DNA of 64,000 nucleotides from a virus. Taxonomy: Duplodnaviria; Caudoviricetes. This document shows positions 83-49,162 of this stretch, piece after piece. Position 1 is the first letter of the stretch. Each line of letters opens with the position of its first letter. A model generated the notes under the pieces. It saw only the letters and a list, made by a program, of their open reading frames with translations, did no database searches and was not told the DNA's origin. The stretch is taken from IMG/VR virus record IMGVR_UViG_3300025018_000141, positions 1-64,000 of that record. The stretch is one strand, 5' to 3'. The position numbers were made by a program, and so were the translations under genes.

Positions 83-742
83 ATGAAATTAAAATATCCA
101 AAAAATTATAAAATTAAAGCTCCACCAACAAAGGAAGAAGATAAGCTTACTGACGAAGAACTTAAGAAGTGGCTAAATACGAAGGGACATATTCCAAATG
201 CTTTAAGACGACAAGTTATTGAAGCAAAAAGAAAACCGTTAATAGAAGAGAGTCAAAAAATTAGAGCAGTTAGAAAACAAAAAAGAGGAGATACTCAAAA
301 AATTGTTCAAAGACAGAAGTTAGATCTATTCCTTGAGGAGTTTTTAAAGAATGGGGGGAATGCCACTCGAGCCGCATTACGCGTATTCAATTGTAAGTCT
401 TTGTCTTCTGCGGCAGTAGTTGGTTCTTTGTATTTACAGAAAGGCAGGGCATCTGGGCGGCTTCATCTTGAAAAGAAAGGGTATGGGTATGGAAAACTTT
501 TGGATGTTGCAACTAAAAAAATGGAAGAATCTAAAAATCCAGAATGGTGGGATCGAATTATGAAGATTGCTAAATATGAAGATTTCTTGGAAAAAAAGAA
601 TACTGGTGCTCCTGTTGCTGTTAATGTATTTCAAGCTCATAAAAGCTTTGTATCAGATTATATAGAGGATGCAGAAATTGTGAAGGACGAAATCAGTCTT
701 GATGATATGGAAGCCGTGGAGGAGGCAGAAGATGAAGATTAA
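83..742 (+). CDS. terS: Terminase small subunit (putative)
   Basis: HTH-like segment FLEEFLKNGGNATRAALRVF; directly upstream of and overlapping the large terminase. Confidence 0.65.
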   Translation: MKLKYPKNYKIKAPPTKEEDKLTDEELKKWLNTKGHIPNALRRQVIEAKRKPLIEESQKIRAVRKQKRGDTQKIVQRQKLDLFLEEFLKNGGNATRAALRVFNCKSLSSAAVVGSLYLQKGRASGRLHLEKKGYGYGKLLDVATKKMEESKNPEWWDRIMKIAKYEDFLEKKNTGAPVAVNVFQAHKSFVSDYIEDAEIVKDEISLDDMEAVEEAEDED

Positions 743-1649
743 CTATCAGAAATTCATCGAGGAAAATTTTCTCGTTCCCGATAAGGACACACTTAGTCCA
801 ATACCCTTTAAATTAAATACTGTTCAGGAAAAATACTACAGACTTTTAAACGAGAGACATCCCAATATGGAAGGTATTCGAGAAATTGTTTTGAAAGCAC
901 GTCAGCAGGGTATGTCTTCTTTTATACTTGCGCTTTTTGCAGTGGACTTTATTGTTCGACCCTATTCTGTTTCTATTTGTATTTCTCATAGAAAAGATTC
1001 TACCGATCTTCTTTTTAAAAAGGTTAAGGCATATATTACTTCATACTTTGCAAAACTTGCAGAAAAGCAGGGGACTAGCTTAGAGGCAGTTCAAAAGCAG
1101 TTTTTAAAATCAGACAACAGAAATCTTATTGAGAATGCCGAAAATGATGCAATATTTTATATTGGAACAGCAGGAGCGAAAGTAGGAGGACGTGGAGGAA
1201 CGGCTACTAATATTTTATTTTCAGAATGTGCGTTTTATCAAGATACCGAGCTTATTACAGCACAGGAAATCGTCGTAGGTACTGCTCAGCAGGTCCCCCA
1301 AGATCATGGAATGATCTTTATTGAATCAACAGCAAACGGAGAGGGTAATTATTATCACGAAACATGGGAGAAGGCAAACGAGTTTGATGATAATGGCGCG
1401 AGACTTAGTGTTTACTATCCACAGTTTTTTGGTTGGCAAGAATTTTACTCAGAAGAGTGGATAGAGAAAAAGAAGAAGGAGTTTCCTAATGAGAAGATGG
1501 CAATGCAAGAGTATCCCTCTGATCCAGATGAAGCATTTGTGACATCGGGTACTCCATATTTCAATACGCTAATTTTAAATGAAATGTTAAAGGCAAAAAC
1601 CGATCCAATAAGACAGGGACGATTTGCACCAGATGGTCAATTTTCTTAA
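732..1649 (+). CDS. terL: Terminase large subunit, N-terminal ATPase part
   Basis: IVLKARQQGMSS Walker A, ILFSEC Walker B, FIESTANG motif III; GGAGG at 721 favours ATG 732 over 699. Confidence 0.9.
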   Translation: MKINYQKFIEENFLVPDKDTLSPIPFKLNTVQEKYYRLLNERHPNMEGIREIVLKARQQGMSSFILALFAVDFIVRPYSVSICISHRKDSTDLLFKKVKAYITSYFAKLAEKQGTSLEAVQKQFLKSDNRNLIENAENDAIFYIGTAGAKVGGRGGTATNILFSECAFYQDTELITAQEIVVGTAQQVPQDHGMIFIESTANGEGNYYHETWEKANEFDDNGARLSVYYPQFFGWQEFYSEEWIEKKKKEFPNEKMAMQEYPSDPDEAFVTSGTPYFNTLILNEMLKAKTDPIRQGRFAPDGQFS

Positions 1650-1652
1650 AAA

Positions 1653-2213
1653 ATGTATTGTGAATCTTGTAAAAAAAACCTAACAGAAAAACAAATTAAA
1701 CAAAAAAATAAAACATGCAGTCATAAGTGTAGGGACATGATACATTCTAAAAGAATGCGAGGAAAAAATCATCCCCTATATGGAAAACATTTATCAAAGA
1801 AATGGAAAGAAAATATTTCAAAAGCGACTAAAGGAAAAAATAAAGGAGCAAGATTTTCCCCAAAAACAGAATTTAAAAAAGGTGATCAAAAAAATATAAA
1901 AGCATATTCTTTTCCAAAAGGAGAGGGAAATCCTTCTTGGAAGGGTGGCATATTGAGATCAGAGAGACAAAGAATAATGAAAACCGATGAATATAAAAAA
2001 TGGAGAAACGGGGTTTTTAAAAGAGACAATTATGTATGTCAAATATGCGGTAAACGAGGAAATAAATTACAAGCCGATCATATAAAGAGATTCTCCGATT
2101 ATCCAGAATTAAGATTTAAATTAGATAATGGAAGAACCTTGTGTGTGTCTTGTCACATACTCACGCCAAACTATGGAAATAAAAACTTATGTCAAAAATA
2201 TCAAATAATATAG
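1653..2213 (+). CDS. HNH homing endonuclease (Zn finger + NUMOD3-like + HNH)
   Basis: CxxC..CSHKC, NPSWKGG, CQICG...ADHIKRF...NGRTLCVSCH. Confidence 0.9.
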   Translation: MYCESCKKNLTEKQIKQKNKTCSHKCRDMIHSKRMRGKNHPLYGKHLSKKWKENISKATKGKNKGARFSPKTEFKKGDQKNIKAYSFPKGEGNPSWKGGILRSERQRIMKTDEYKKWRNGVFKRDNYVCQICGKRGNKLQADHIKRFSDYPELRFKLDNGRTLCVSCHILTPNYGNKNLCQKYQII

Positions 2214-2860
2214 AACCAGTAAGACAATACCGAGAACTCGAGCACGACGAGCAGTTTGTTGTATTTGGGGATCCCGCTGAGTCTCAGGACTATTGTGCAG
2301 CTGTGGCATTTAGTAAGAAGCATTACGACTTTCCTCTTGTTATGAATACTATTATTGAGTCAAGTCAGTTTGGGTATGAGCTTTTTTACATGTGTAAATA
2401 TATTTTTAGCAAAACTGGCATTTACCCGAAACTTGCAGTAGAACGCAATACTGGTCAGGCAACTATTTATGTTTTAAAGACTCTTAATTATCCAGATCTT
2501 TTTAGAATGGTTGACTTTGCCGCGCAGGGTGGATCTTATGAGAAGGGAAGTATTGGGTGGATTACAACTGGTGCTATTTCTGGAGGAGAGTTAGTTGGGA
2601 CTCGAAGAAAAATGCTTGATGATCTTTCTCTTTCTATAAATCAGGGGATGTTGAAAATGTATGACGAACAACAAATTAGACAGTTGAAGTCTTTCATGAT
2701 AGTAAAGGGTCGTGCGCAGGCTCGAGCACATAAGAAGGACGATTTGGTTATGGCTAGTGCTGGAGCATGGCAGGTAGCACAACTTACTCCAGATCACGAT
2801 TGGGGAGATCAAGACAATGAGACATTTAAAAGAGAGCAGGAAAAGTGGAGATTTAAATAA
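2189..2860 (+). CDS. terL: Terminase large subunit, C-terminal RNase H-like nuclease part
   Basis: VVFGDPAE, LAVERN and KKDDLVMA acidic motifs; follows the ATPase half after the HNH. Confidence 0.85.
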   Translation: MSKISNNIEPVRQYRELEHDEQFVVFGDPAESQDYCAAVAFSKKHYDFPLVMNTIIESSQFGYELFYMCKYIFSKTGIYPKLAVERNTGQATIYVLKTLNYPDLFRMVDFAAQGGSYEKGSIGWITTGAISGGELVGTRRKMLDDLSLSINQGMLKMYDEQQIRQLKSFMIVKGRAQARAHKKDDLVMASAGAWQVAQLTPDHDWGDQDNETFKREQEKWRFK

Positions 2861-2879
2861 TTAATATTTTTTTATTCTT

Positions 2880-3101
2880 ATGAACTTAAAATTTAATGAC
2901 GATGCATATCCATATGCAAAAGATCGATATGAGGCTTCTGTTAAGAGAAATCCAGATTCCTTCTGTCCCAATCATCCAATGATTCTTGCAGAGAATGAAG
3001 AGAAGATTAGATGGGCAGAGGGCGGAGTAACAGAAAAGGATGGAGAAGTAACGCGTTTTCGATATTGCCCTAAATGTCATATCTCGAAAATTATTGAATA
3101 A
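2880..3101 (+). CDS. Small Zn-ribbon hypothetical protein
   Basis: CPNH...CPKC; in operon order. Confidence 0.55.
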   Translation: MNLKFNDDAYPYAKDRYEASVKRNPDSFCPNHPMILAENEEKIRWAEGGVTEKDGEVTRFRYCPKCHISKIIE

Positions 3102-3103
3102 AT

Positions 3104-3421
3104 GTGTCTATTATGAAAAAAGTATCAGAAGAATTAGACTATTACAAACAACAATCTAGAAATGAATTTGCATTTCGTGAGATGCTTAAGGTGGTCAAAC
3201 CAGACCTATTTGTTCTTTTTGACCTTTTAGAATCAACAAATGTAAATGTGCTTGTACTTTTGAAAATAATCAGACATATCAAAAATATTGATGCAGGGAA
3301 TGGCTATGGAACAATCTCTATCAACATAGAGAATGGAAGGGTGATGTTTATTAAGGGAGAAGAATCCGATAAAGTAAACGAGCCAGCAGTAGTTGAAAGA
3401 AAAAAAACTATTGACAAATAA
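3104..3421 (+). CDS. Hypothetical protein
   Basis: Tightly packed 105-aa ORF. Confidence 0.6.
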   Translation: MSIMKKVSEELDYYKQQSRNEFAFREMLKVVKPDLFVLFDLLESTNVNVLVLLKIIRHIKNIDAGNGYGTISINIENGRVMFIKGEESDKVNEPAVVERKKTIDK

Positions 3422-3440
3422 AGATATAGCCTGATACGTT
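3411..3440 (+). promoter_or_regulatory. Sigma70-like promoter, 18-bp spacer, upstream of portal
   Basis: TTGACA 3411-3416, TACGTT 3435-3440. Confidence 0.5.
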
Positions 3441-3479
3441 TTTTATACATAGGTTAGAAAGGCGAAAAACGCCGTTTAG

Positions 3480-3535
3480 CCGACCAATTTAATAGAACCC
3501 ATTAATTTGGGTTTTTTTAATGGTCGGGTTTTTTT
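3480..3535 (+). terminator. Nested double terminator-like hairpin in portal leader
   Basis: Outer CCGACCA/TGGTCGG + T7, inner AACCC/GGGTT + T-run; ends 13 nt before portal ATG. Confidence 0.65.
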
Positions 3536-3548
3536 ATGTACAATTATT

Positions 3549-5678
3549 ATGGCTGATTTAAAAGATCTTAGCAAAACGAAAAAAAAGGAAGAGGAAATCT
3601 TCAACGAATGTAAGATACACTCTGACATTGGTTTTGATGAGACCGACAAACGCTCAACGGGGAGAAACAGAATAGGATCTATTTCCTTCGATGAAGCTGA
3701 CGAACTTTTTAGATCATGGCTTGATGAAAACAAGTGGCCATATGATGCTCTTCTTTTTGATCCACGAATCTTCACTTTTATTTTTGAAAAAACTTCACGA
3801 CTTATTGCAAATAAACCAAGGGGCCACTTAATTCCGCGAGAAGGCTCAGATGTACTTTCTGCAAAAATTAACAATGCTCTTCTCGACTACCAATGGGATA
3901 TGGCTAACGTTGGCGGATCCATGATTTCTAAATGGGCAATGATGGATATGAATACTCGAAAGTATGGAGCTTCTTTTGCTCTTTGTAAGTGGAGATACGA
4001 AACAGATAGTTTCAATAAGGTGGTGTTTGACGGACCAGATATGCAAGTTCTCAATAACCGTGATATTGCACATGATCTTAGCGCAACTTCTATTCAATCG
4101 TGTAATTGGTTTCAGGTTAGACAATATGTTACTGTTCAGGATTTACAAAATGTTAATGATCAGGGAAGAACTGCTCCTATATATAAAAACTTAGATCGAC
4201 TCAAATATGCAATTTCAACTGCCGAGGGAAGTTTAGGTGGAGGAGATGGACGAGAAACTAATTGGATTTCTAGAAATAGAACCATTGCGGGACTCGAGAC
4301 TGACCCGTATGGAAAGGACCCTGCATTTAAGACGGTTGAAGTCATTACAGAATACAGAAAAGACAGATGGATTACTTTTGCCAAGAATGAAGGCGTAATT
4401 CTTCGCGACATTCCTAACCCTTACGAAAATAATGAAATTCCTGTTGTCATGCTTAGTTATTATCGTATTGATGATGATTTATATGGTGTGTCAGAAATTG
4501 AGCCAGTAAAAGGACTTCAAAAGGCAATTAATGCCCTTCTTTGTCAATATGTTGATGAAATTAATCAACAACTATACTCACCTATTGCAATCGGTCCAGG
4601 TGTTCGCCAACATACTCTTGAATGGGGTAAGGGTGCACGGTGGATCATGAACAATCCCATGACAGACTTCAGATTGGTTGAATCTCGATCAAACGCCTCT
4701 CAGCTTTTCAGTCAAACCTATTCTGTTCTTGTCTCTTCAATGATGAACGCACTCGGAGAGTCTTCTTTGGGGGTGTCAAATATTCAACCATATCAAAAAG
4801 ACAAGACAGCAACGGAAGTGAAGGCGTTACAACTTCAGAGAAATTCTCGAGATAACTACAATCAAATATTTTTATCAGAATCAATTAAAAGACAAATGAT
4901 GCTTTGGCATACAATGAACCAAAAACTTCTTTTCTCTGATCCTGAAAAACAATACTACATTATGAGAATTGTTGGACCAGACATAGTACAAAAATTCAAA
5001 GAGTCAAAGCTTAATGACAAAATTTATTTGGTTCAGGAAAGCAAAAAACTTCTTGAAGAGAGTATGGAGTCGTTCCAAAAAACGGGGAAAGTAAATGAAG
5101 CACTTCCACTTGATGATGGGGGAACTCCAAAATACAAAGTTAATATTGGTTCAAAAGATAAGCCAGATTATTCTTCTAAATTTGATATGGACGAAGGAGA
5201 TAAGAGCGCACTACTTATTGTAGAACCTGAGGATATTAAGGGAATGTTTGACTTCTCAATTGATGTTCAATCAATGACTGCAAATGCAGATGATGAAAGA
5301 AAAGCAGGAAGACAACAAGCAATAATGCTTCTTACATCAAATCCAAATATTTCACAAATGCTTTTGCAAGAGGGAATTAAGCCTAAGTTTAAAGATCTCT
5401 TTGTTACTTGGCTTGAAGACCTTGGATTTTCAGATGCTGAAAAATACTTTGAGAAGGGAAAAGAACTACCAACGGGACCTGGAGGAGGGCCACCAAGTCC
5501 ACAAAACATCATGGGGCAACTCGCTGGGGGCGGAGGAGAACCAACTGGTATTCCAGGAGGAACTGATCCAAGCGCGGGGGGAGAATCCGCGGGACAGTCA
5601 CCATTTGGACCAGAACAACAAGGAATAAATACTAGTTCATTAGATCCAGAACAATTAAAAAATTTCTTTAAACAATAA
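3549..5678 (+). CDS. Portal protein
   Basis: ~709 aa, after terminase; podovirus-type portal features, Gly/Pro-rich C-tail; ATG 3549 follows the leader hairpin. Confidence 0.85.
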   Translation: MADLKDLSKTKKKEEEIFNECKIHSDIGFDETDKRSTGRNRIGSISFDEADELFRSWLDENKWPYDALLFDPRIFTFIFEKTSRLIANKPRGHLIPREGSDVLSAKINNALLDYQWDMANVGGSMISKWAMMDMNTRKYGASFALCKWRYETDSFNKVVFDGPDMQVLNNRDIAHDLSATSIQSCNWFQVRQYVTVQDLQNVNDQGRTAPIYKNLDRLKYAISTAEGSLGGGDGRETNWISRNRTIAGLETDPYGKDPAFKTVEVITEYRKDRWITFAKNEGVILRDIPNPYENNEIPVVMLSYYRIDDDLYGVSEIEPVKGLQKAINALLCQYVDEINQQLYSPIAIGPGVRQHTLEWGKGARWIMNNPMTDFRLVESRSNASQLFSQTYSVLVSSMMNALGESSLGVSNIQPYQKDKTATEVKALQLQRNSRDNYNQIFLSESIKRQMMLWHTMNQKLLFSDPEKQYYIMRIVGPDIVQKFKESKLNDKIYLVQESKKLLEESMESFQKTGKVNEALPLDDGGTPKYKVNIGSKDKPDYSSKFDMDEGDKSALLIVEPEDIKGMFDFSIDVQSMTANADDERKAGRQQAIMLLTSNPNISQMLLQEGIKPKFKDLFVTWLEDLGFSDAEKYFEKGKELPTGPGGGPPSPQNIMGQLAGGGGEPTGIPGGTDPSAGGESAGQSPFGPEQQGINTSSLDPEQLKNFFKQ

Positions 5679-6365: not shown

Positions 6366-7208
6366 ATGACCGAAATAAACCAACCCAATACGGGGACGGT
6401 TCAGCCACAGCAAGATCCTGTGCAGGTGCAAGCACCAGCAGTAGACGATGCCAAAGCAAGAACCACAGAACAATTCAATAAGTTGTTAGAAAACAATAGA
6501 AAGTTGCACGAGACGAATGAGCAGCTACAGAGACAGATTGGACAGAGACAAAATGTAAACAATACATTCCAACCTATTCAAGATGTCCCAGCTATAGCTC
6601 AACATCCAGCTCGTCAGCAAGTGAATGCAGAAGACTTTGTTGAAATCGACCCTGCCACTGGTCAGCCATTTATTAATGAGCAAAGACTAAAGAGCAAGTT
6701 AGATGAAATAAATAAAAAAGCATCACAGGCTGAAAGAACAATCGAAAATTACATCAAGACAACTGAAAAAAGAGAAATAGATCGACAGAATTCAGAGGCG
6801 TTCATAACACATCCTGAACTTAATCCAGAATCTGAAAAATTCGATCTTGAGTTTAACAAGCAGGTGCGAGGAATGTTACTTGACTCCATGTACAACATGG
6901 CAGACTACGGAGGGCGACCACTTTCTTTCAAGGAAGCGGGAGACTACGTGAAATCAAAAGCAACACCAGCTCAAGTTAAAGAAGAACAAGTAGTTAAGGT
7001 AGCAGAAGGAAAGCCAGCAGAAGGAGGCAATGATTTGAAGATGCAAAGTGCAGCGGGAGTAAATAACCAGCAACCACAACAGCAAAGACAAACAATGCAA
7101 GACTCTGAAGAACTAAGACAATTAGTTATGGCGACAAGAAAAGGAAATCTAGATGCTTTAACTCAACGATTAATGAACACAGAGCATTCGCGCAAAGAGG
7201 GCGAATGA
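6366..7208 (+). CDS. Capsid scaffolding protein (putative)
   Basis: Q-rich coiled-coil protein directly before the MCP; strong SD AAAGGAGGTGA. Confidence 0.7.
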   Translation: MTEINQPNTGTVQPQQDPVQVQAPAVDDAKARTTEQFNKLLENNRKLHETNEQLQRQIGQRQNVNNTFQPIQDVPAIAQHPARQQVNAEDFVEIDPATGQPFINEQRLKSKLDEINKKASQAERTIENYIKTTEKREIDRQNSEAFITHPELNPESEKFDLEFNKQVRGMLLDSMYNMADYGGRPLSFKEAGDYVKSKATPAQVKEEQVVKVAEGKPAEGGNDLKMQSAAGVNNQQPQQQRQTMQDSEELRQLVMATRKGNLDALTQRLMNTEHSRKEGE

Positions 7209-7289
7209 GTATAGGGTTATTCCCAACCCACCCCATACTCAATTTTTAAAAGAAAGGGTATGGGGTGCCAATTAAGGGGGGTGATATTT

Positions 7290-7337
7290 ATGGCTTGGGG
7301 ACTTATTTCGTATCAGGACGGGGGAAGAAGAGAGGAT
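7290..7337 (+). CDS. Major capsid protein exon 1 (MAWGLISYQDGGRRED)
   Basis: SD GGGGTGA, ATG 7290; ends in U at the group I 5' splice site; joins in frame to LLDVIG. Confidence 0.85.
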
Positions 7338-7385
7338 TGCCCGTGGATATGTAACTCCAAGTTCAACACAACTAGAAGCGCACTG

Positions 7386-7394
7386 TGATATAAT
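7386..7394 (+). promoter_or_regulatory. Extended -10 promoter inside intron 1 driving a leaderless HNH mRNA
   Basis: TGA-TATAAT, then 6 nt, then ATG 7401. Confidence 0.65.
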
Positions 7395-7400
7395 AGCTTT

Positions 7401-8150
7401 ATGAAAAGCTACACATGTCCAGTCTGCAAAAAAGAATTCTCTGCTTATCAGAGAAGAACGACTTGCTCTAAGCAATGTCTTTATAAATATCAATCAAGGC
7501 GTGAGACAAAACCATGCGAGTTTTGTAATAAAGAAATCGTCGATAAGGTAAGCAGGTTCAGGAGAGCTAAAAATGTTTTTTGTACTAGAAAATGTCAGCA
7601 TGAATGGGAAAAACTAAACAAAGTAAAGTACTTAGAATTGCGAAACAAAGAATGGTGCATTAAACAATACGAAACGCTATCTTTAATAAAGATAGCAAAA
7701 ATGCTCAACTGTGGAGAAACAACGGTATTTAAGTATTTCAAAATTCATGGCATTGTCCTTGATAGAAAGAAATGGTTAAAAAACGTACCCAAAAGTCAAC
7801 AACAGAGAAATAAACTTTCTGAGATAAGGCTTAGTAAACAATTAGGAGTTGGAGAAAAAAATGGTAATTGGAAAGGTGGCATCTATAAACTTTCCGCTTC
7901 CATCCGTAACAGTAAAAAGAATGCACAATGGAAAAAAGCTGTAATGGAGATATCCAACAAAGTTTGTGTACTATGCAACTCAAAAGACAGGCTCGAGGTC
8001 GATCATATAAAAAAATTTAGATTTATATTGAGTGACAACAAAATCGAATCCTTGAAAGATGCTTATACTTGCGAAGAACTTTGGGATGTGAATAACGGTA
8101 GAATTCTTTGTCGAAGTTGTAATATCGGAATAGAAGCCGATAAAATTTAG
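7401..8150 (+). CDS. Intron-encoded HNH homing endonuclease
   Basis: Two CxxC..CS/TxxC fingers, NGNWKGG, CVLC...EVDHIKK...NGRILCRSCN. Confidence 0.9.
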   Translation: MKSYTCPVCKKEFSAYQRRTTCSKQCLYKYQSRRETKPCEFCNKEIVDKVSRFRRAKNVFCTRKCQHEWEKLNKVKYLELRNKEWCIKQYETLSLIKIAKMLNCGETTVFKYFKIHGIVLDRKKWLKNVPKSQQQRNKLSEIRLSKQLGVGEKNGNWKGGIYKLSASIRNSKKNAQWKKAVMEISNKVCVLCNSKDRLEVDHIKKFRFILSDNKIESLKDAYTCEELWDVNNGRILCRSCNIGIEADKI

Positions 8151-8321
8151 GTCCTCTATAAAGTACGCTAAACGGTGAACGAAAGGTCTTCCAACGCCGT
8201 GCTAAATTAATAATCTCTTAGAGATAAGAAGTTATTATAAATGTGTAGAGACTATACACGTACCTTTCCGCGAGGAAATGAAGACATAGTCCGATTTTCT
8301 AGGAATAGAAATTAAAAATCG

Positions 8322-8354
8322 CTATTAGATGTTATTGGTGATGTTTCACCAGAT
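8322..8354 (+). CDS. Major capsid protein exon 2 (33-nt microexon, LLDVIGDVSPD)
   Basis: Between intron-ending G 8321 and U 8354; in frame with exons 1 and 3. Confidence 0.85.
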
Positions 8355-8620
8355 GAACTACAAATTGTCTGGCTTGAGAACTGAGAATTGCACTTTAAAA
8401 ACAAAAGTGCCACTTAGGGCTTAAGTAAATAAATACGGGGTTAATTGCTGGGACGTCCAGAACGGATAATCAGCAGCCAAGCCAACAGTAATGTTGGAAG
8501 GTTCGACGGTCAGGATTGAAATAACATCCATAAATGCCCCGACCCGAAAGGGAAGATATGACCTGAACTTACTAGGAATAGTAAGAAGCAAGAAATAGAA
8601 AGCTTGCGATAACATAATTG
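8355..8620 (+). ncRNA. Group I intron 2 in MCP (266 nt, ORF-less)
   Basis: P1 CCAGAU/GUCUGG with U.G; AAUUGCUGGGA / AAUCAGCAG (P/Q); P3 CGGGG/CCCCG; P7 GGUCA/UGACC with AAGAUAUGACC; terminal G 8620. Confidence 0.9.
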
Positions 8621-9448
8621 GAAACACCACTTATGACTCTTTTTGGGACAGCAACCGCTAAAGGAACACTGCATGAATGGATGAAATACAATATTTCACG
8701 ACCAACAACAGTTTCAAGTAGCATCGAAGGAGCAGACACAACGTTTGCAGACCTTACACAACCATCAAGAGAAAACAACGTAACACAAATCATCACTCAA
8801 TCTATCCAAGTTTCTAGAACCGAAAGAAAAGTAAACGTTGCCGCTATGGGAGATCCATACGCATTTCAAAAAGCAGACGCTTTGAGACAAATGAAGATGA
8901 AGATGGAATATGCCATTCTTAACGCCGTTAGAGCATCAGGATCATCTGGTGTCGCACGACAAATGACTGGAATAGACGCATTCATCACTTCTGTTGTAAC
9001 TGGAAGAAATTCTGGAACATCATTCTCAGAACAAGAGCTTAATGATATGACCGCTGACGCTTACACTGCTGTTAGATCAGATAAGGTTTTCGACATGTTG
9101 CTTTGTACCGTTAAAATTAAGCAAGCAATTGCTGGATTTGGAGGAAACTCTACTCGTTACATTGATGCATCTGAAAAGAGACTTACAAAAGACATCCTCG
9201 TTTACGACTCTGCTGTCGGATCGCATAGAATTATGCACCACAGAGATGTTAGAAACGTGGCTGGAACAGTAACTGTTTATGGACTACGTGAAGATCTTCA
9301 CAAAGTAGCTTACCTTGACAAACCTTTGTTTGAGGAGCTTTCTAAAGTTGGAGACGCTGATCGTGGACATTGGGTAACTGAATTCACTCTTGAAGTATTA
9401 GAAGAAAAAGCTGATCTTAAGAGAACAGGTTATAGCCAAACAGGCTGA
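8621..9448 (+). CDS. Major capsid protein exon 3 (spliced product 302 aa; SU10/N4-gp56-like HK97 fold)
   Basis: ETPLMTLFG...HEW, NVTQIITQSIQVSRT; position after scaffold. Confidence 0.88.
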   Translation, partial: ETPLMTLFGTATAKGTLHEWMKYNISRPTTVSSSIEGADTTFADLTQPSRENNVTQIITQSIQVSRTERKVNVAAMGDPYAFQKADALRQMKMKMEYAILNAVRASGSSGVARQMTGIDAFITSVVTGRNSGTSFSEQELNDMTADAYTAVRSDKVFDMLLCTVKIKQAIAGFGGNSTRYIDASEKRLTKDILVYDSAVGSHRIMHHRDVRNVAGTVTVYGLREDLHKVAYLDKPLFEELSKVGDADRGHWVTEFTLEVLEEKADLKRTGYSQTG

Positions 9449-10483: not shown

Positions 10484-13400
10484 ATGGAAAATAAATCTTT
10501 TCTTTATCTCAATATGATCGTCAAACACGACGAACCAATTGAGATGGTAAAACGATCAATAGATTCAATCAAAGATTATGTAGACGATATTTATATTACC
10601 GTTACGTATGATGATAAAAAACTTCCTTCTTCTCACCCACTTCTTAAACTTTTAAAAGAATACAAAACAAACATTACTCAATTCCAGTGGGTTGATGACT
10701 TTGCCGCTGCACGACAATATGCCCTAGAACAGGTTCCGCAAGGCGACAACCACTTTGTATACTGGCATGATGCCGATGATGTTCTTGAGGGCTCAGAAAA
10801 GATTCCTCTTATTATAAAAGACATGGCTTCCCTCAATCATTCTTCAGTATTTTTAGACTATTGGTATCTTGTGGATTATGACGAAAATGGGAAGGTATTT
10901 GATGTGGTTGTAAAGCAAACAAGAGAACGGATTATTCGAAATAATAATACATTTAAATGGATTGGAGAATTACACGAAACTCTTATTGAACAAAGATCGG
11001 AAAATATTGTGAAGGTTGAACGAGAAGATTGTATTGTTGTTCATCATTCTAATGCAGATCGAGGAGATATGAATATTGCAAGAAATGTACGAATTCTTGA
11101 AAAGATGCTTACTAAACAAAAGGGTAAAGATCCAAGAACTCTTATTTATCTTGCAAAAGGATATTATGATTTTGCTCGCATGACCAAGGGAGATGAAAGT
11201 AAAAGTTACTATAATAAAGCCCTAAAACTCTTCTATGCATACCTTGAGGGGCATGGAGAAGAAGGGAAAGAGGGATATATTGTTCCATCTGGCTGGAGAG
11301 AAGAGCGCGCGACCGCATGGGGACATGTTGCTGAAATTGCTGTAATACAGAAAGAGCCAACAATTGCCATTGAGGCATATGAAAAAGCAATGCACGAAGC
11401 CCCAGAGTTTCCAAGCTACTATATAGATTTAGCATCTGTGTACGTTATGTTGGGAGACTATAAAAAAGCAAAACAATATCTTCTTCTTGGAAGCGCAACC
11501 CCTGAACCAAAAACAACAATTGTTACTTATCCAAAAGAACTTAAAAAGAGAGCGCTACAAGTAAGTATAGATGTTTCACTTCATGAGCAAAATTTAGATA
11601 AGGCTCACGCATCGGCTAAAATGTTAGTTGAGATGTTGCCCTATGAGGACTATCCAAAAGAAACATTAGAAGAAATAGAGAGGCTTATTGAATTTAACAG
11701 AGCTTGTCAATCGGTTGTATTTTTAGGAAAGTTTTTGGAGAAGAGAAAAAAGACAAAAGAGCTTGGTAAATTAGTGGAATCTATTCCATCTGAGATGCAC
11801 CAAGAAAAGTTTGCAACTGAAATGAGACATCGATTCCTTCCTCCTCGAATTTGGGGAGAAGATGAAATCACTATTCTTTGTGGGCCAGGATGGGAGAAGT
11901 GGAGTCCAAAGAGCGTGACAACGGGAATTGGAGGTTCGGAAGAGGCGGTAGTAAGACTTTCGAAAGAACTTGCAAAGCTTGGGTGGAAGGTAACAGTATA
12001 TGGCGATCCAAGAGATGATGCTGGGGAATATGCTGGAGTGACATATAAACCATGGAATGATATTAATGCAAAGGATGGATTTAATACTCTTATATTATGG
12101 AGATCTGTTGGCTTTGTTGATGTAAATCCCAAATCTAAATTTACTATGTTGTGGCTCCACGATGTTCCAAATAACCCAGAGTTTACAGAGGAACGGTTAA
12201 ATAAAATAGACAAGATTGCTGTTCTTTCTGAATATCACAAGAGTCTTTTGAGAATGAATAAAAATGGAGTATATAAAGTTATTCCCGATCATAAAATATT
12301 CGTAACATCAAATGGAATCTCTGATATTAATATTAAAAAATGGAAAGGTGATTCCAAAAAGATAGCTTACATTTCTTCACCAGATCGAGGACTTATATAT
12401 TTACTAAATAATTGGGGAAAGATTATAAAAGAAGTTCCCAATGCAACGCTTGACGTCTATTATGGATTTGATGTGTTTGATACCTTGAATAAAGACAACC
12501 CAGAAAGAATGAAATTTAAAAACAAAATAATGAGCTTAATGCGACAAGATGGCATTACATATCATGGAAGAATCGGACACGATGCTCTTCATTATCAACT
12601 ATCAAGAACTGGTATTTGGGCATACCCGACTGATTTTGAAGAAATATCGTGTCACCCTGCTGGAACAAGGGTTACGACAAAAAGAGGAGAGGTAAATATT
12701 GAAGATATCTTAATAGAAGATAAAGTTCTTACGCATACTGGAAAATATAATAGTATTAATAAAATAATGCGAAGAAGACATAATGGACATATGATAGAAA
12801 TTAGTGTTCAATCTGGAGATAAATTAGAGCTAACACCAGAGCACCCCCTTTATATTATTAATGGGAAAAGTAGTTGGAGAAGTTTTAATGACATTAAAGG
12901 GGCTGAGCCACAATGGATAGAGGCAAAAAATATTACGATTAATGATTGTGTGTTGTTCCCAAGATATAAGTCAAAAACCTCAAAAGTATTTCATATACCA
13001 ATAGCACATCGACAAAATAATTTTTTTACCACAGACAATCCCGTTCCTGAAAAAATAGATGTTACACCAGAACTCAGCTGGTGGCTTGGATACTTTGCGG
13101 GGGATGGTACTGCCTTAATCAAAACAGGAAAAGTAGGAGTATTGGTTGCAAACAGTCATCCCGAACATATAAGGCCCGTTCTTGATGGATTTTCCGCATT
13201 TGGGATAGAAGTAAAGTCTCGCAAATTAAGAGGTTGTGTCGAATATTATATCCAAAGTTATCGTCTAGCAAAGGTTCTTCGTTCTTTATACTATGACAAT
13301 AATAAAAAAATGTTATCTGAACATGCCATGAATCAATATGGATTGAATGGAATCTTAGCAGCAGATGGACACAAAAATGAAAGAACAAGCATCTTTACAA

Positions 13401-13996
13401 ACACTTCGTTGAGGCTTATTGGTCAAGTGCGCCAATTATTATCTGAAATAGGAATTTCTGGAAGAGTCACTCCACGAATACATAAGAATGGGAATAAAAG
13501 CTATTCGATTGGGTGGACAACTCAGCCAAGGGCTCTATTTTATGGGGTTTCAGATGATTATATTATTAAAAGAATAGCAGATATTAAATTTAATGATTTT
13601 GAAGGAGATGTCTATAATCTTGAGGTGGAAAATGACAACTCTTATGTCTCTAACGGACACATTGTACATAATTGCATTTCAGCAATGAAAGCACAAGCCT
13701 GCGGAGCCATTCCTGTTGTGACAAATTATGCAGCGCTTCAGGAGACAGTAAGAAATGGACTCAAAGTTGATGTTGACATTACTATGGAAGAGGGTCAAGA
13801 TAAATATGTAAAGGCAATCGTGGGGCTTCTTAAAGATGAAAAGAAACAAAAGGAGATACGAGAAAATATGATGACATGGGCAATGGACTATTTTCAATGG
13901 AAGCACGTAGCTGCAACTTGGGATACTCTATTTAGAGTAAAGGTCCAAAACCCAGAAAAGCGATTAGAAATTATTGAACAAAAGGAGGAGAAATAA
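10484..13996 (+). CDS. Multidomain glycosyltransferase: GT2 + TPR-like helices + GT4, intein-containing
   Basis: LNMIVK, FAAARQ, WHDADD (GT2); GIGGSEEA, YISSPDRGL, YPTDFEEIS|CISAMKAQACG (GT4). Confidence 0.9.
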   Translation: MENKSFLYLNMIVKHDEPIEMVKRSIDSIKDYVDDIYITVTYDDKKLPSSHPLLKLLKEYKTNITQFQWVDDFAAARQYALEQVPQGDNHFVYWHDADDVLEGSEKIPLIIKDMASLNHSSVFLDYWYLVDYDENGKVFDVVVKQTRERIIRNNNTFKWIGELHETLIEQRSENIVKVEREDCIVVHHSNADRGDMNIARNVRILEKMLTKQKGKDPRTLIYLAKGYYDFARMTKGDESKSYYNKALKLFYAYLEGHGEEGKEGYIVPSGWREERATAWGHVAEIAVIQKEPTIAIEAYEKAMHEAPEFPSYYIDLASVYVMLGDYKKAKQYLLLGSATPEPKTTIVTYPKELKKRALQVSIDVSLHEQNLDKAHASAKMLVEMLPYEDYPKETLEEIERLIEFNRACQSVVFLGKFLEKRKKTKELGKLVESIPSEMHQEKFATEMRHRFLPPRIWGEDEITILCGPGWEKWSPKSVTTGIGGSEEAVVRLSKELAKLGWKVTVYGDPRDDAGEYAGVTYKPWNDINAKDGFNTLILWRSVGFVDVNPKSKFTMLWLHDVPNNPEFTEERLNKIDKIAVLSEYHKSLLRMNKNGVYKVIPDHKIFVTSNGISDINIKKWKGDSKKIAYISSPDRGLIYLLNNWGKIIKEVPNATLDVYYGFDVFDTLNKDNPERMKFKNKIMSLMRQDGITYHGRIGHDALHYQLSRTGIWAYPTDFEEISCHPAGTRVTTKRGEVNIEDILIEDKVLTHTGKYNSINKIMRRRHNGHMIEISVQSGDKLELTPEHPLYIINGKSSWRSFNDIKGAEPQWIEAKNITINDCVLFPRYKSKTSKVFHIPIAHRQNNFFTTDNPVPEKIDVTPELSWWLGYFAGDGTALIKTGKVGVLVANSHPEHIRPVLDGFSAFGIEVKSRKLRGCVEYYIQSYRLAKVLRSLYYDNNKKMLSEHAMNQYGLNGILAADGHKNERTSIFTNTSLRLIGQVRQLLSEIGISGRVTPRIHKNGNKSYSIGWTTQPRALFYGVSDDYIIKRIADIKFNDFEGDVYNLEVENDNSYVSNGHIVHNCISAMKAQACGAIPVVTNYAALQETVRNGLKVDVDITMEEGQDKYVKAIVGLLKDEKKQKEIRENMMTWAMDYFQWKHVAATWDTLFRVKVQNPEKRLEIIEQKEEK
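12650..13672 (+). mobile_element. Intein (341 aa) with LAGLIDADG-type endonuclease domain
   Basis: Starts CHPAGTRV, block B LTPEHP, WWLGYFAGDG, VYNLEVENDNSYVSNGHIVHN followed by Cys+1. Confidence 0.93.
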
Positions 13997-47968: not shown

Positions 47969-48385
47969 ATGTATAAAAACAGAAAAGAAAGAAAATCTTT
48001 AGGATTTTGTTCAGACTGCCCTAATAAGTCTGTAAACGGATATGGTTATTGCAAATCCTGTTTGGTAAAACGTAGGGACAAGAATAGAGAAATTAGGTCA
48101 ACAAATAAAAAAGATGTAATAAGTCATTATGGAGGACAGTGTTCCTGTTGTGGAGAGGAAAGGTTAGAGTTCTTAACAATAGATCATATAAATAATGATG
48201 GTGCAATACATAAAAAAGAAGTTGGCGGTAGTGGCGATGCAATGTACAGGTGGATTAAAAAGAACAAATACCCTAAAAATAGATTTCAAATCCTTTGTTA
48301 TAATTGTAACTGTTCTAAGGGATTCATGGGATATTGTCCACATAAAAAAGAAAAACAGTATATGGCTCAGATGGAAGAGCGCTAA
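47969..48385 (+). CDS. HNH endonuclease inside tRNA cluster
   Basis: CSDC..CKSC, CSCCG..LTIDHINNDG, QILCYNCN. Confidence 0.88.
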   Translation: MYKNRKERKSLGFCSDCPNKSVNGYGYCKSCLVKRRDKNREIRSTNKKDVISHYGGQCSCCGEERLEFLTIDHINNDGAIHKKEVGGSGDAMYRWIKKNKYPKNRFQILCYNCNCSKGFMGYCPHKKEKQYMAQMEER

Positions 48386-48428
48386 GCCTGGAACTTAGAG
48401 GTCGCAGGTCCGAGTCCTGCTATACTGA
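48356..48428 (+). tRNA. tRNA-Pro(TGG), non-canonical loop bases
   Basis: CAGTATA/TATACTG, CTAAG-CCTGGAA-CTTAG; C33, A37, T-loop TCCGAGT. Confidence 0.78.
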
Positions 48429-48429
48429 C

Positions 48430-48684
48430 ATGAGAAGTAAAGATATGGTAAATTGGAGCAGTCCAAAATACTATCAAAGTGGATGGGAAAAGTTTCATCA
48501 ACACTTTGGAAAAAGAAAAGACCCAAAGTATTGTAAAAAACTAAAGGGTCCACATAATTATGTTTTAATCGAACATAAAGATAAGTCTTTTTGGAGATTT
48601 GATTGGGAAATCTTTACATATAAATGTAGTGGGTGTACAAAACAGCTCTATCGAAGCAAGCCATTAAAAGAAATGCGAGTGTAG
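48430..48684 (+). CDS. Hypothetical protein in tRNA cluster
   Basis: 84 aa, C..H and CSGC motifs. Confidence 0.5.
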   Translation: MRSKDMVNWSSPKYYQSGWEKFHQHFGKRKDPKYCKKLKGPHNYVLIEHKDKSFWRFDWEIFTYKCSGCTKQLYRSKPLKEMRV

Positions 48685-48745
48685 TTAAACGGTTTAACGA
48701 CTGCCTTCCAAGCAGTAAACGCGGGTTCGACTCCTGTCACTTGCT
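48675..48745 (+). tRNA. tRNA-Gly(TCC)
   Basis: GCGAGTG/CACTTGC, ACTGC-CTTCCAA-GCAGT, U73. Confidence 0.92.
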
Positions 48746-48751
48746 CATTAA

Positions 48752-48823
48752 GCGAGATTAGCATAACGGCTAATGCACCTCGTTGCCAACGAGGCTACAC
48801 CAGTTCGATTCTGGTATTTCGCT
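48752..48823 (+). tRNA. tRNA-Gly(GCC)
   Basis: GCGAGAT/ATTTCGC, CCTCG-TTGCCAA-CGAGG. Confidence 0.92.
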
Positions 48824-48851
48824 CAAACAAATATTAAGTATAAAAATAATA

Positions 48852-48936
48852 GGAGGAAATCCGAACGGTGAGGATGCTGCTTTGAAACCAGTTAGTCGTA
48901 ACTGACCTGCGGGTTCGATTCCTGCTTCCTCCGCCA
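48852..48936 (+). tRNA. tRNA-Ser(TGA)
   Basis: GGAGGAA/TTCCTCC, TTTGAAA loop, long variable arm, encoded CCA. Confidence 0.9.
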
Positions 48937-49009
48937 GGTCTCTTCGACAAGTGGCATAAGTCATCTACCTGCAAAGTAGACATCACGGGTTCGATTCCTG
49001 TAGAGACCT
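48937..49009 (+). tRNA. tRNA-Cys(GCA)
   Basis: GGTCTCT/AGAGACC, TCTAC-CTGCAAA-GTAGA, U73. Confidence 0.92.
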
Positions 49010-49015
49010 CTAAAA

Positions 49016-49090
49016 AGACGCATAGTCGAGCGGAAAGACGCTTCTCTGATAAAGAAGAAATCGGTTGTTCGATTCAACCTGTGTCTACCA
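49016..49090 (+). tRNA. tRNA-Ile(GAT)
   Basis: AGACGCA/TGTGTCT, CTTCT-CTGATAA-AGAAG, encoded CCA. Confidence 0.9.
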
Positions 49091-49162
49091 AGGGGTGTAG
49101 CTAAGCGGTAAAGCATTACTCTTATAAAGTAAAGATCATACGTTCGAATCGTATCGTCCCTA
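49091..49162 (+). tRNA. tRNA-Ile(TAT)
   Basis: AGGGGTG/CGTCCCT, TTACT-CTTATAA-AGTAA, A73. Confidence 0.88.

Follow-up and report, generated by a model that had tools for sequence, protein, structure and literature searches.

Major capsid gene of an uncultured environmental phage with two predicted group I introns 33 nt apart

Introduction

Group I introns that encode HNH endonucleases are found in the DNA polymerase genes of the Bacillus phages SPO1 and SP82 (I-HmuI) and Bastille (I-BasI), where the introns with these nicking enzymes occupy nearby, distinct positions of one conserved stretch, with one intron per genome. In the Staphylococcus phage Twort, a single gene, orf142, reportedly carries three group I introns and undergoes exon skipping. 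Here we analyze the major capsid gene of an uncultured phage, located at 7290-9448 of a stretch of 64,000 nucleotides (nt), hereafter the window, which covers positions 1 to 64,000 of the virus record IMGVR_UViG_3300025018_000141, a 74,391-base-pair (bp) IMG/VR contig with a completeness estimate of 78%. In this gene, two group I introns very probably flank an exon of 33 nt, and both would have to be spliced out. The locus differs from that of the Bacillus phages in the gene concerned (capsid versus polymerase) and in its at least seven insertion sites within 81 nt, with two to three introns co-occurring. Like Twort orf142, the present gene codes for a phage protein and is interrupted by more than one group I intron, and in both cases short internal exons make skipping possible; the host gene and the phage are different.

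The mycobacteriophage LittleE has a group I intron in its major capsid gene, the splicing of which was shown by reverse-transcription PCR and N-terminal sequencing (PMC3706429). In LittleE, as in the phage analyzed here, an intron with an endonuclease ORF splits the major capsid gene; it obeys the U/G rules at its splice sites, and close relatives are without it (PMC3706429). However, LittleE carries one intron, with a LAGLIDADG-like open reading frame (ORF) on the opposite strand (PMC3706429), whereas the present gene has two unrelated introns 33 nt apart and a sense-strand HNH gene in a P1 loop, and is known from sequence alone. For the lactococcal phage Tuc2009, too, a group I intron is cited, in the gene of the major head protein (PMC3706429, PMC2504315); the intron is single, and both the capsid family and the host differ from ours. 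Finally, in the Jug jumbo phages, terL is split into two to three pieces by group I introns, with splicing confirmed by metatranscriptome reads (PMC12880540). In both cases the phages are uncultured, small group I introns and homing endonuclease genes interrupt essential genes of the late or structural class, and cmscan recognizes the introns (PMC12880540). However, the Jug phages are 360-402-kb gut phages with introns in terL, nrdD and polymerase genes (PMC12880540); in ours, an environmental phage of 74 kb, it is the capsid gene that carries them.

The present case adds modestly to a known phenomenon, its extras being the HNH gene in the P1 loop and a dense hot spot at the gene start, and it leaves the knowledge of group I introns unchanged in kind. 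An earlier note on the window, made from its sequence, had presented two introns in a capsid gene as unusual; this framing was overstated, since phage capsid introns and multi-intron phage genes have been published, and among the relatives of this phage the gene has as many as three introns (locus L090).

Results and discussion

A full-length capsid frame is restored by removing two intervals

When the segments 7290-7337, 8322-8354 and 8621-9448 are joined, they give an open frame of 302 amino acids (aa) that reads MAWGLISYQDGGRRED/LLDVIGDVSPD/ETPLMTLFG... (Table 1), and in-frame stop codons follow the ends of both exon 1 and exon 2. The earlier note had derived a 302-aa product from the removal of 7338-8321 and 8355-8620, and this product is indeed collinear with intron-less homologues. 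Among the 120 best database homologues, most have a length of exactly 302 aa and start with MAWGLITYQD..RREDLLDVIGDVSPDETPLMTLFGT, and the first 35 residues of the spliced product are nearly identical to the N-terminus of the many intron-less ones; exon 1 matches the consensus start of the intron-less 302-aa homologues at 13 of its 16 residues, and exon 2 matches the intron-less consensus at all 11, with synonymous differences only from relatives. For comparison, we gathered loci coding for this capsid protein, 25 from IMG/VR and 75 from metagenomes. In the intron-less relatives the three exon pieces are contiguous in the DNA, with junction codons ...GAG GAY/YTN... and ...CCN GAY/GAR ACN.... 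The 27 split codons of exons 1 and 2 differ from these relatives by 7-15 synonymous and 2-4 nonsynonymous codon changes, so that, judging from this excess, both exons are still under purifying selection as coding sequence.

The ORF that contains exon 3 (8618-9448, + strand) matches Pfam PF17236 SU10_MCP (E 1.2e-61, 209 bits, cut-off 24.1) as well as the PHROG 1328 major head protein. Its Pfam match begins only at profile position 24, and the N-terminus is therefore absent from this ORF; a full-length 302-aa relative (P0002) spans profile positions 7-289. The public gene call of this record (P0001) is a protein of 271 aa starting from Met 8633, with an SU10_MCP match from position 30. ORF callers thus truncate the capsid gene, as the earlier note had asserted. 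The ATG at 7290 is preceded by a Shine-Dalgarno-like motif (AAGGGGGGTGAT), and no such motif was found upstream of 8618 or 8633 when the sequence was inspected at both candidate starts.

Table 1. Features of the capsid gene, its two predicted introns and its neighbourhood, and intron insertion sites among relatives
Feature	Position	Strand	Description
Portal gene	3507-5678		SU10_portal, E 2.7e-7; neighbour of capsid gene
Probable scaffold gene	6366-7208		Neighbour of capsid gene
Capsid exon 1	7290-7337	+	16 codons, MAWGLISYQDGGRRED; ends in U7337
Intron 1	7338-8321	+	984 nt, group I, site C family; omega-G = 8321
Intron 1 P1	7331-7337 x 8151-8157		Exon AGAGGAU x guide GUCCUCU; 7 bp, U7337.G8151 wobble
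Intron 1 P1 loop	7338-8150		813 nt, houses HNH gene
Putative HNH endonuclease ORF	7401-8150	+	249 aa; stop UAG 8148-8150 adjoins internal guide sequence
Intron 1 ribozyme core P3-P9	8150-8321		Compact, without P2
Intron 1 P3	8163-8167 / 8259-8263		
Intron 1 P4-P6			Between P3 5' strand and P7
Intron 1 P7	8250-8254 / 8287-8291		GACUA/UAGUC
Intron 1 P8, P9			3' of P7
Capsid exon 2	8322-8354	+	33 nt, LLDVIGDVSPD; last 6 nt are P1 strand of intron 2
Intron 2	8355-8620	+	266 nt, ORF-less group I, site E family; omega-G = 8620
Intron 2 P1	8349-8354 x 8367-8372		Exon CCAGAU x GUCUGG; 6 bp, U8354.G8367 wobble
Intron 2 P2, P2.1			After P1, before P3
Intron 2 P3	8436-8440 / 8537-8541		
Intron 2 P4-P6a			Between P3 5' strand and P7
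Intron 2 P7	8508-8512 / 8559-8563		GGUCA/UGACC
Intron 2 P7.1	8513-8516 / 8526-8529		Covarying hairpin between P7 and P3'
Intron 2 P8, P9, P9.1			3' of P3'
Capsid exon 3	8621-9448	+	275 codons plus stop
Predicted spliced junction, exon 1-exon 2			GAGGAU/CUAUUAGAU; begins CUAUUA
Predicted spliced junction, exon 2-exon 3			CCAGAU/GAAACACC; begins GAAACA
Predicted tryptic peptide of spliced protein			Behind Arg-13/14, across both junctions: EDLLDVIGDVSPDETPLMTLFGTATAK
Site A	after MAWG		L024, L051, L055, L088, L090, L098
Site B	after MAWGLIT		L019, L043, L062
Site B'	before ..RRED		L078
Site C	after RRED		Window and five others
Site D	inside LLDVIG/DVSPD		L067, L085
Site D'	before SPD		L074
Site E	after SPD		Window and nine others
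Site F	codon 45/46		L069
Site G	~codon 155		L090
Upstream capsid-motif ORF	L004:1099-1200		
Upstream capsid-motif ORF	L045:518-640		
Upstream capsid-motif ORF	L007:2414-2530		
Upstream capsid-motif ORF	L024:982-1100		
Upstream capsid-motif ORF	L019:1683-1800		

Two group I introns of different architecture

Both intervals have the features of group I introns that the earlier note had read from the sequence, and all of these held on closer analysis: the 5' splice sites follow a U (7337, 8354) that forms a U.G pair in P1 (U7337.G8151, U8354.G8367), each intron ends in G (8321, 8620), P3 and P7 can be located in both, within cores supported by covariation, and the P7 helices differ (GACUA/UAGUC versus GGUCA/UGACC). 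The arrangement as a whole, with a group I intron on each side of the 33-nt capsid exon, was likewise borne out by Rfam matches, by the P1, P7 and P3 pairings and by covariation, and all homologous introns at the two sites also end in G.

Intron 1 matches Rfam RF00028 at 8108-8312, and its 54.4 bits exceed the gathering score, which is 50. Homologues occupy the same site in four relatives (L004, L012, L061 and L095), where they are 882-977 nt long and each contain an orthologous HNH ORF. A fifth relative, L044, has an ORF-less intron of 160 nt at this site (56-215), very small for a group I intron, which lacks P2, retains all core helices P3-P9 and scores 43.5 bits against Rfam. In L044, only 13 nt separate the splice site from the same GGUCCUCU, at the place where the window has the HNH gene, and the 813-nt HNH stretch of intron 1 is therefore the P1 loop.

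The HNH ORF of intron 1 is intact and full length, and matches six PHROG HNH endonuclease families (best phrog_1271, E 2.8e-17). It keeps the segment LEVDHIKKF...NGRILCRSCN, which it shares with its four orthologues at site C in other phages of the group, and a DH...N...CxxCN motif is conserved across the five site-C ORFs, that of the window included. The encoded protein is a putative HNH endonuclease and may be active in homing. Six nucleotides upstream of its ATG, an extended -10 element (TGATATAAT, 7386-7394) can be read from the sequence, which a simple consensus promoter scan did not list; at the corresponding place, L004 and L012 have a perfect TTGACA-17-TATAAT. These promoter-like elements suggest that the endonuclease may have its own, near-leaderless transcript.

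Intron 2 has homologues at the same site with and without an endonuclease gene. Four of them (L006, L015, L024 and L098; 743-792 nt) contain an HNH ORF in the P2 loop, which is unrelated to the HNH ORF of intron 1 and encodes 167-171 aa in L006, L015 and L098, being truncated to 94 aa in L024 (3221-4003). Three others (L051, L055 and L090; 265-267 nt) are ORF-less, as is the copy in the window. In introns of subgroup IA, one or more additional helices (P7.1/P7.2) separate P7 from the 3' strand of P3. Intron 2 has one P7.1-type hairpin at this place and may be an IA-like ribozyme.

A search with blastn against the INPHARED phages returned no related cultured phage; its only matches, two of 41-43 nt, are to the conserved P4-P6 region of intron 2 and lie in unannotated DNA of a Xanthomonas phage and a Klebsiella phage. 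Moreover, a scan with the J6/7-P7 motif of intron 2 (16 nt, GAAGGTTCGACGGTCA) gave 48 IMG/VR contigs (L216-L263), of which three were already known with the capsid gene; the other 45 are without it, and many of these are 80-245 kb long. Introns related to intron 2 are probably present in other genes of other phages.

The two introns have no detectable sequence similarity to each other, and their architectures differ: intron 1 is without P2 and has its ORF in the P1 loop, and intron 2 has P2, P2.1, P7.1 and P9.1. In relatives, moreover, either family can be present at its site without the other. Because similarity is lacking, the architectures differ and the families occur separately, the comparison supports an independent acquisition of the two introns, which the earlier note had suggested from the P7 helices.

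Covariation in the intron cores

To evaluate these structures, P3-P9 pairs were written out on MAFFT core alignments of the site-C introns (family C, alignment A1) and of the site-E introns (family E, alignment A2), and then counted. P2, P2.1 and the P6a and P8 of intron 1 were left out of the counts, as the alignment is out of register there; by eye, they form in each sequence. In family C, 11 of the 26 pairs are changed on both sides, and shuffled controls reached the observed values in none of 500 cases on four of five measures and in 4 of 500 on the fifth. In family E, 27 of 44 pairs are changed on both sides, including two in P7 and four in P3, and no shuffle among 500 reached the observed value on any measure. 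P7 is invariant in family C. Compared with the controls, the pairing observed in both families is far above the chance level. The P1 of intron 2 covaries as well (CCAGAU x GUCUGG in the window versus CCUGAU x GUUAGG in L015), and the window copies of both introns keep every counted core pair.

Several points weigh against the reading of two introns that are spliced out. The structures were derived from the same sequences on which they were counted, which inflates the share of paired cells (99.4% in family C versus 28-42% in slid controls, 100% in family E versus 37-45%), although not the number of double-changed pairs. P10 is weak in the alignments, with 3 bp in intron 1 and about 2 bp in intron 2, and is not conserved among relatives. 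Pfam gave no HNH match in the ORF at 7401-8150 at E<0.1. Intron 2 matches RF00028 (8384-8585, E 3.9e-5 in a 1.5-kb search) with 29.3 bits, below the gathering threshold of 50, its homologues at the same site scoring 24.8-43.6 bits. The covariance-model check proposed in the earlier note therefore came out in favour of intron 1 and fell short for intron 2, whose membership of group I rests on its splice site, omega-G, core helices and reading frame. Finally, the evidence is at the level of sequence, and actual splicing is what we infer from it. A whole-window cmscan in E-value mode listed transfer RNAs (tRNAs) only; a run with gathering scores found intron 1, a local run found intron 2, and an Rfam scan of the whole record listed intron 2 only. 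We take the omissions in the E-value run to be a filter effect and not counter-evidence.

Alternative readings

Both introns might splice and some transcripts might nevertheless join exon 1 directly to exon 3, giving an isoform of 291 aa as a by-product or under regulation. The 33-nt length of the skipped exon would keep the frame. However, exon 2 is conserved at all 11 residues, the skipped product would probably not assemble, and no pairing was seen between the guide sequence of intron 1 and exon 3, which leaves such skipping very improbable. We consider it similarly improbable that the introns are dead relics, with the capsid translated from TTG 8618 or ATG 8633 as a truncated protein of 271-276 aa. 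Gene callers do report the open frame at 8618-9448, but a relic would hardly have kept exons 1 and 2 intact and under purifying selection, nor every conserved pair in both ribozyme cores; neither start has a Shine-Dalgarno motif, and the missing 27-31 residues belong to a conserved Pfam domain and are nearly invariant in relatives. Inteins, a programmed frameshift or bypass, or an assembly chimera have nothing in their favour beyond the bare fact of an interrupted gene, and we reject them as next to impossible in view of the in-frame stops after both exon ends, the group I core motifs with their covariation, and the recurrence of the same insertions in many independent contigs from different samples.

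The reading that we retain, with high confidence, is that two group I introns flank the 33-nt exon and are both spliced out. In the mechanism that we propose, the single SU10-type capsid gene would be transcribed as a precursor mRNA of ~2.16 kb, from which both unrelated introns would excise themselves to leave the mRNA for the 302-aa capsid protein. Intron 1 would pick its 5' splice site through the 7-bp P1, with a guide sequence 813 nt downstream, and intron 2 would take the last 6 nt of the 33-nt exon for its own P1. The two introns would have reached the first 27 codons, which are highly conserved, in separate homing events mediated by endonucleases, and the HNH gene present in the P2 loop of relatives would have been lost from intron 2.

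An intron hot spot at the start of the capsid gene

After removal of duplicates, 71 relatives could be assessed at the 5' end of the gene. In 48 of these there is no intron in the first 27 codons, and 22 have at least one there, at a minimum of seven insertion sites within the first 81 nt (Table 1). Rfam supports group I cores at most sites, with scores of up to 70 bits. From these comparisons, the first 27 codons appear clearly as an intron hot spot across this phage lineage. One relative, L090 (1710-4456), carries three introns in the capsid gene (Rfam 34.4, 24.8 and 51.6 bits): one at site A with a 198-aa LAGLIDADG ORF, an ORF-less one at site E (267 nt), and one at about codon 155 with a 253-aa HNH ORF. 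The combination of sites C and E occurs in the window only, among the matches listed by IMG/VR pattern and motif scans at loci with this capsid gene. The lengths of database proteins are consistent with these sites: 271 aa fits the first Met after site E, 277-279 aa fits site D, and 285-286 aa fits site C, these shortened classes together making up about one quarter of the top 120 database homologues.

Site E spans the stages of a homing cycle, from empty sites through introns with an intact HNH gene (L006, L015, L098) and a truncated one (L024) to ORF-less introns (window, L051/L055, L090), and the deletion end points differ among the latter. The site-E copies form a natural series that documents how a homing endonuclease gene decays. 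Every ORF-less or degenerate site-E intron (window, L051/L055, L090, L024) lies 33-69 nt downstream of an endonuclease-bearing intron, which is either of the LAGLIDADG type at site A or of the HNH type at site C. Among the site-E introns with an intact ORF, those of L006 and L015 stand alone, and that of L098 apparently has an upstream neighbour cut by the contig end. It is conceivable, although we would rather bet against it, that the hot spot is a place where introns without an endonuclease persist and spread by hitch-hiking on the cut made by their neighbour, via co-conversion of both introns; we offer this as a hypothesis, the sample being small and partly non-independent, and L098 apparently combining an intact ORF with an upstream neighbour.

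In several relatives, but not in the window, the capsid gene is also preceded, at a distance of 1.5-3 kb, by a small ORF (Table 1) in which the capsid N-terminal motif M.GLTTYQD..RRED is followed by a short, very basic tail. From its sequence, this ORF resembles a duplicate of capsid exon 1 to which a peptide rich in lysine and arginine has been joined.

Implications

Gene callers cut 31 residues off this capsid protein, and about one quarter of its database relatives are likewise shortened; the N-terminal arm is therefore systematically wrong in annotation, capsid phylogenies and structure predictions of this environmental phage group. If both introns are spliced as proposed, the most abundant late protein of the phage would depend on two independent ribozymes both working. 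The relatives provide a natural homing-cycle series together with combinations of neighbouring introns, and may be a usable system for the study of intron competition and co-conversion.

Genomic context and other features of the window

From the portal gene and the probable scaffold gene that flank the capsid gene, the locus is identified as a head module. Between the scaffold-like gene and the capsid start, at 7229-7267, there is an inverted repeat of 10 bp (CACCCCATAC ... GTATGGGGTG) whose arms enclose an A/T-rich loop of 19 nt; in the RNA it may form a stem-loop ahead of the ribosome-binding site of the capsid gene.

Further upstream, two large-terminase-like ORFs (699-1649 and 2189-2860) are separated by an ORF of 186 aa (1653-2213); a sensitive local Rfam search gave no group I intron signal in this region (500-3500). 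Downstream of the capsid gene, a glycosyltransferase-like ORF of 1170 aa (10484-13996) contains an apparent intein, which starts with CHPAGTRV and ends with VHN followed by C. Finally, seven tRNA genes are clustered at 48356-49162 (Rfam tRNA, 31.7-69.4 bits).

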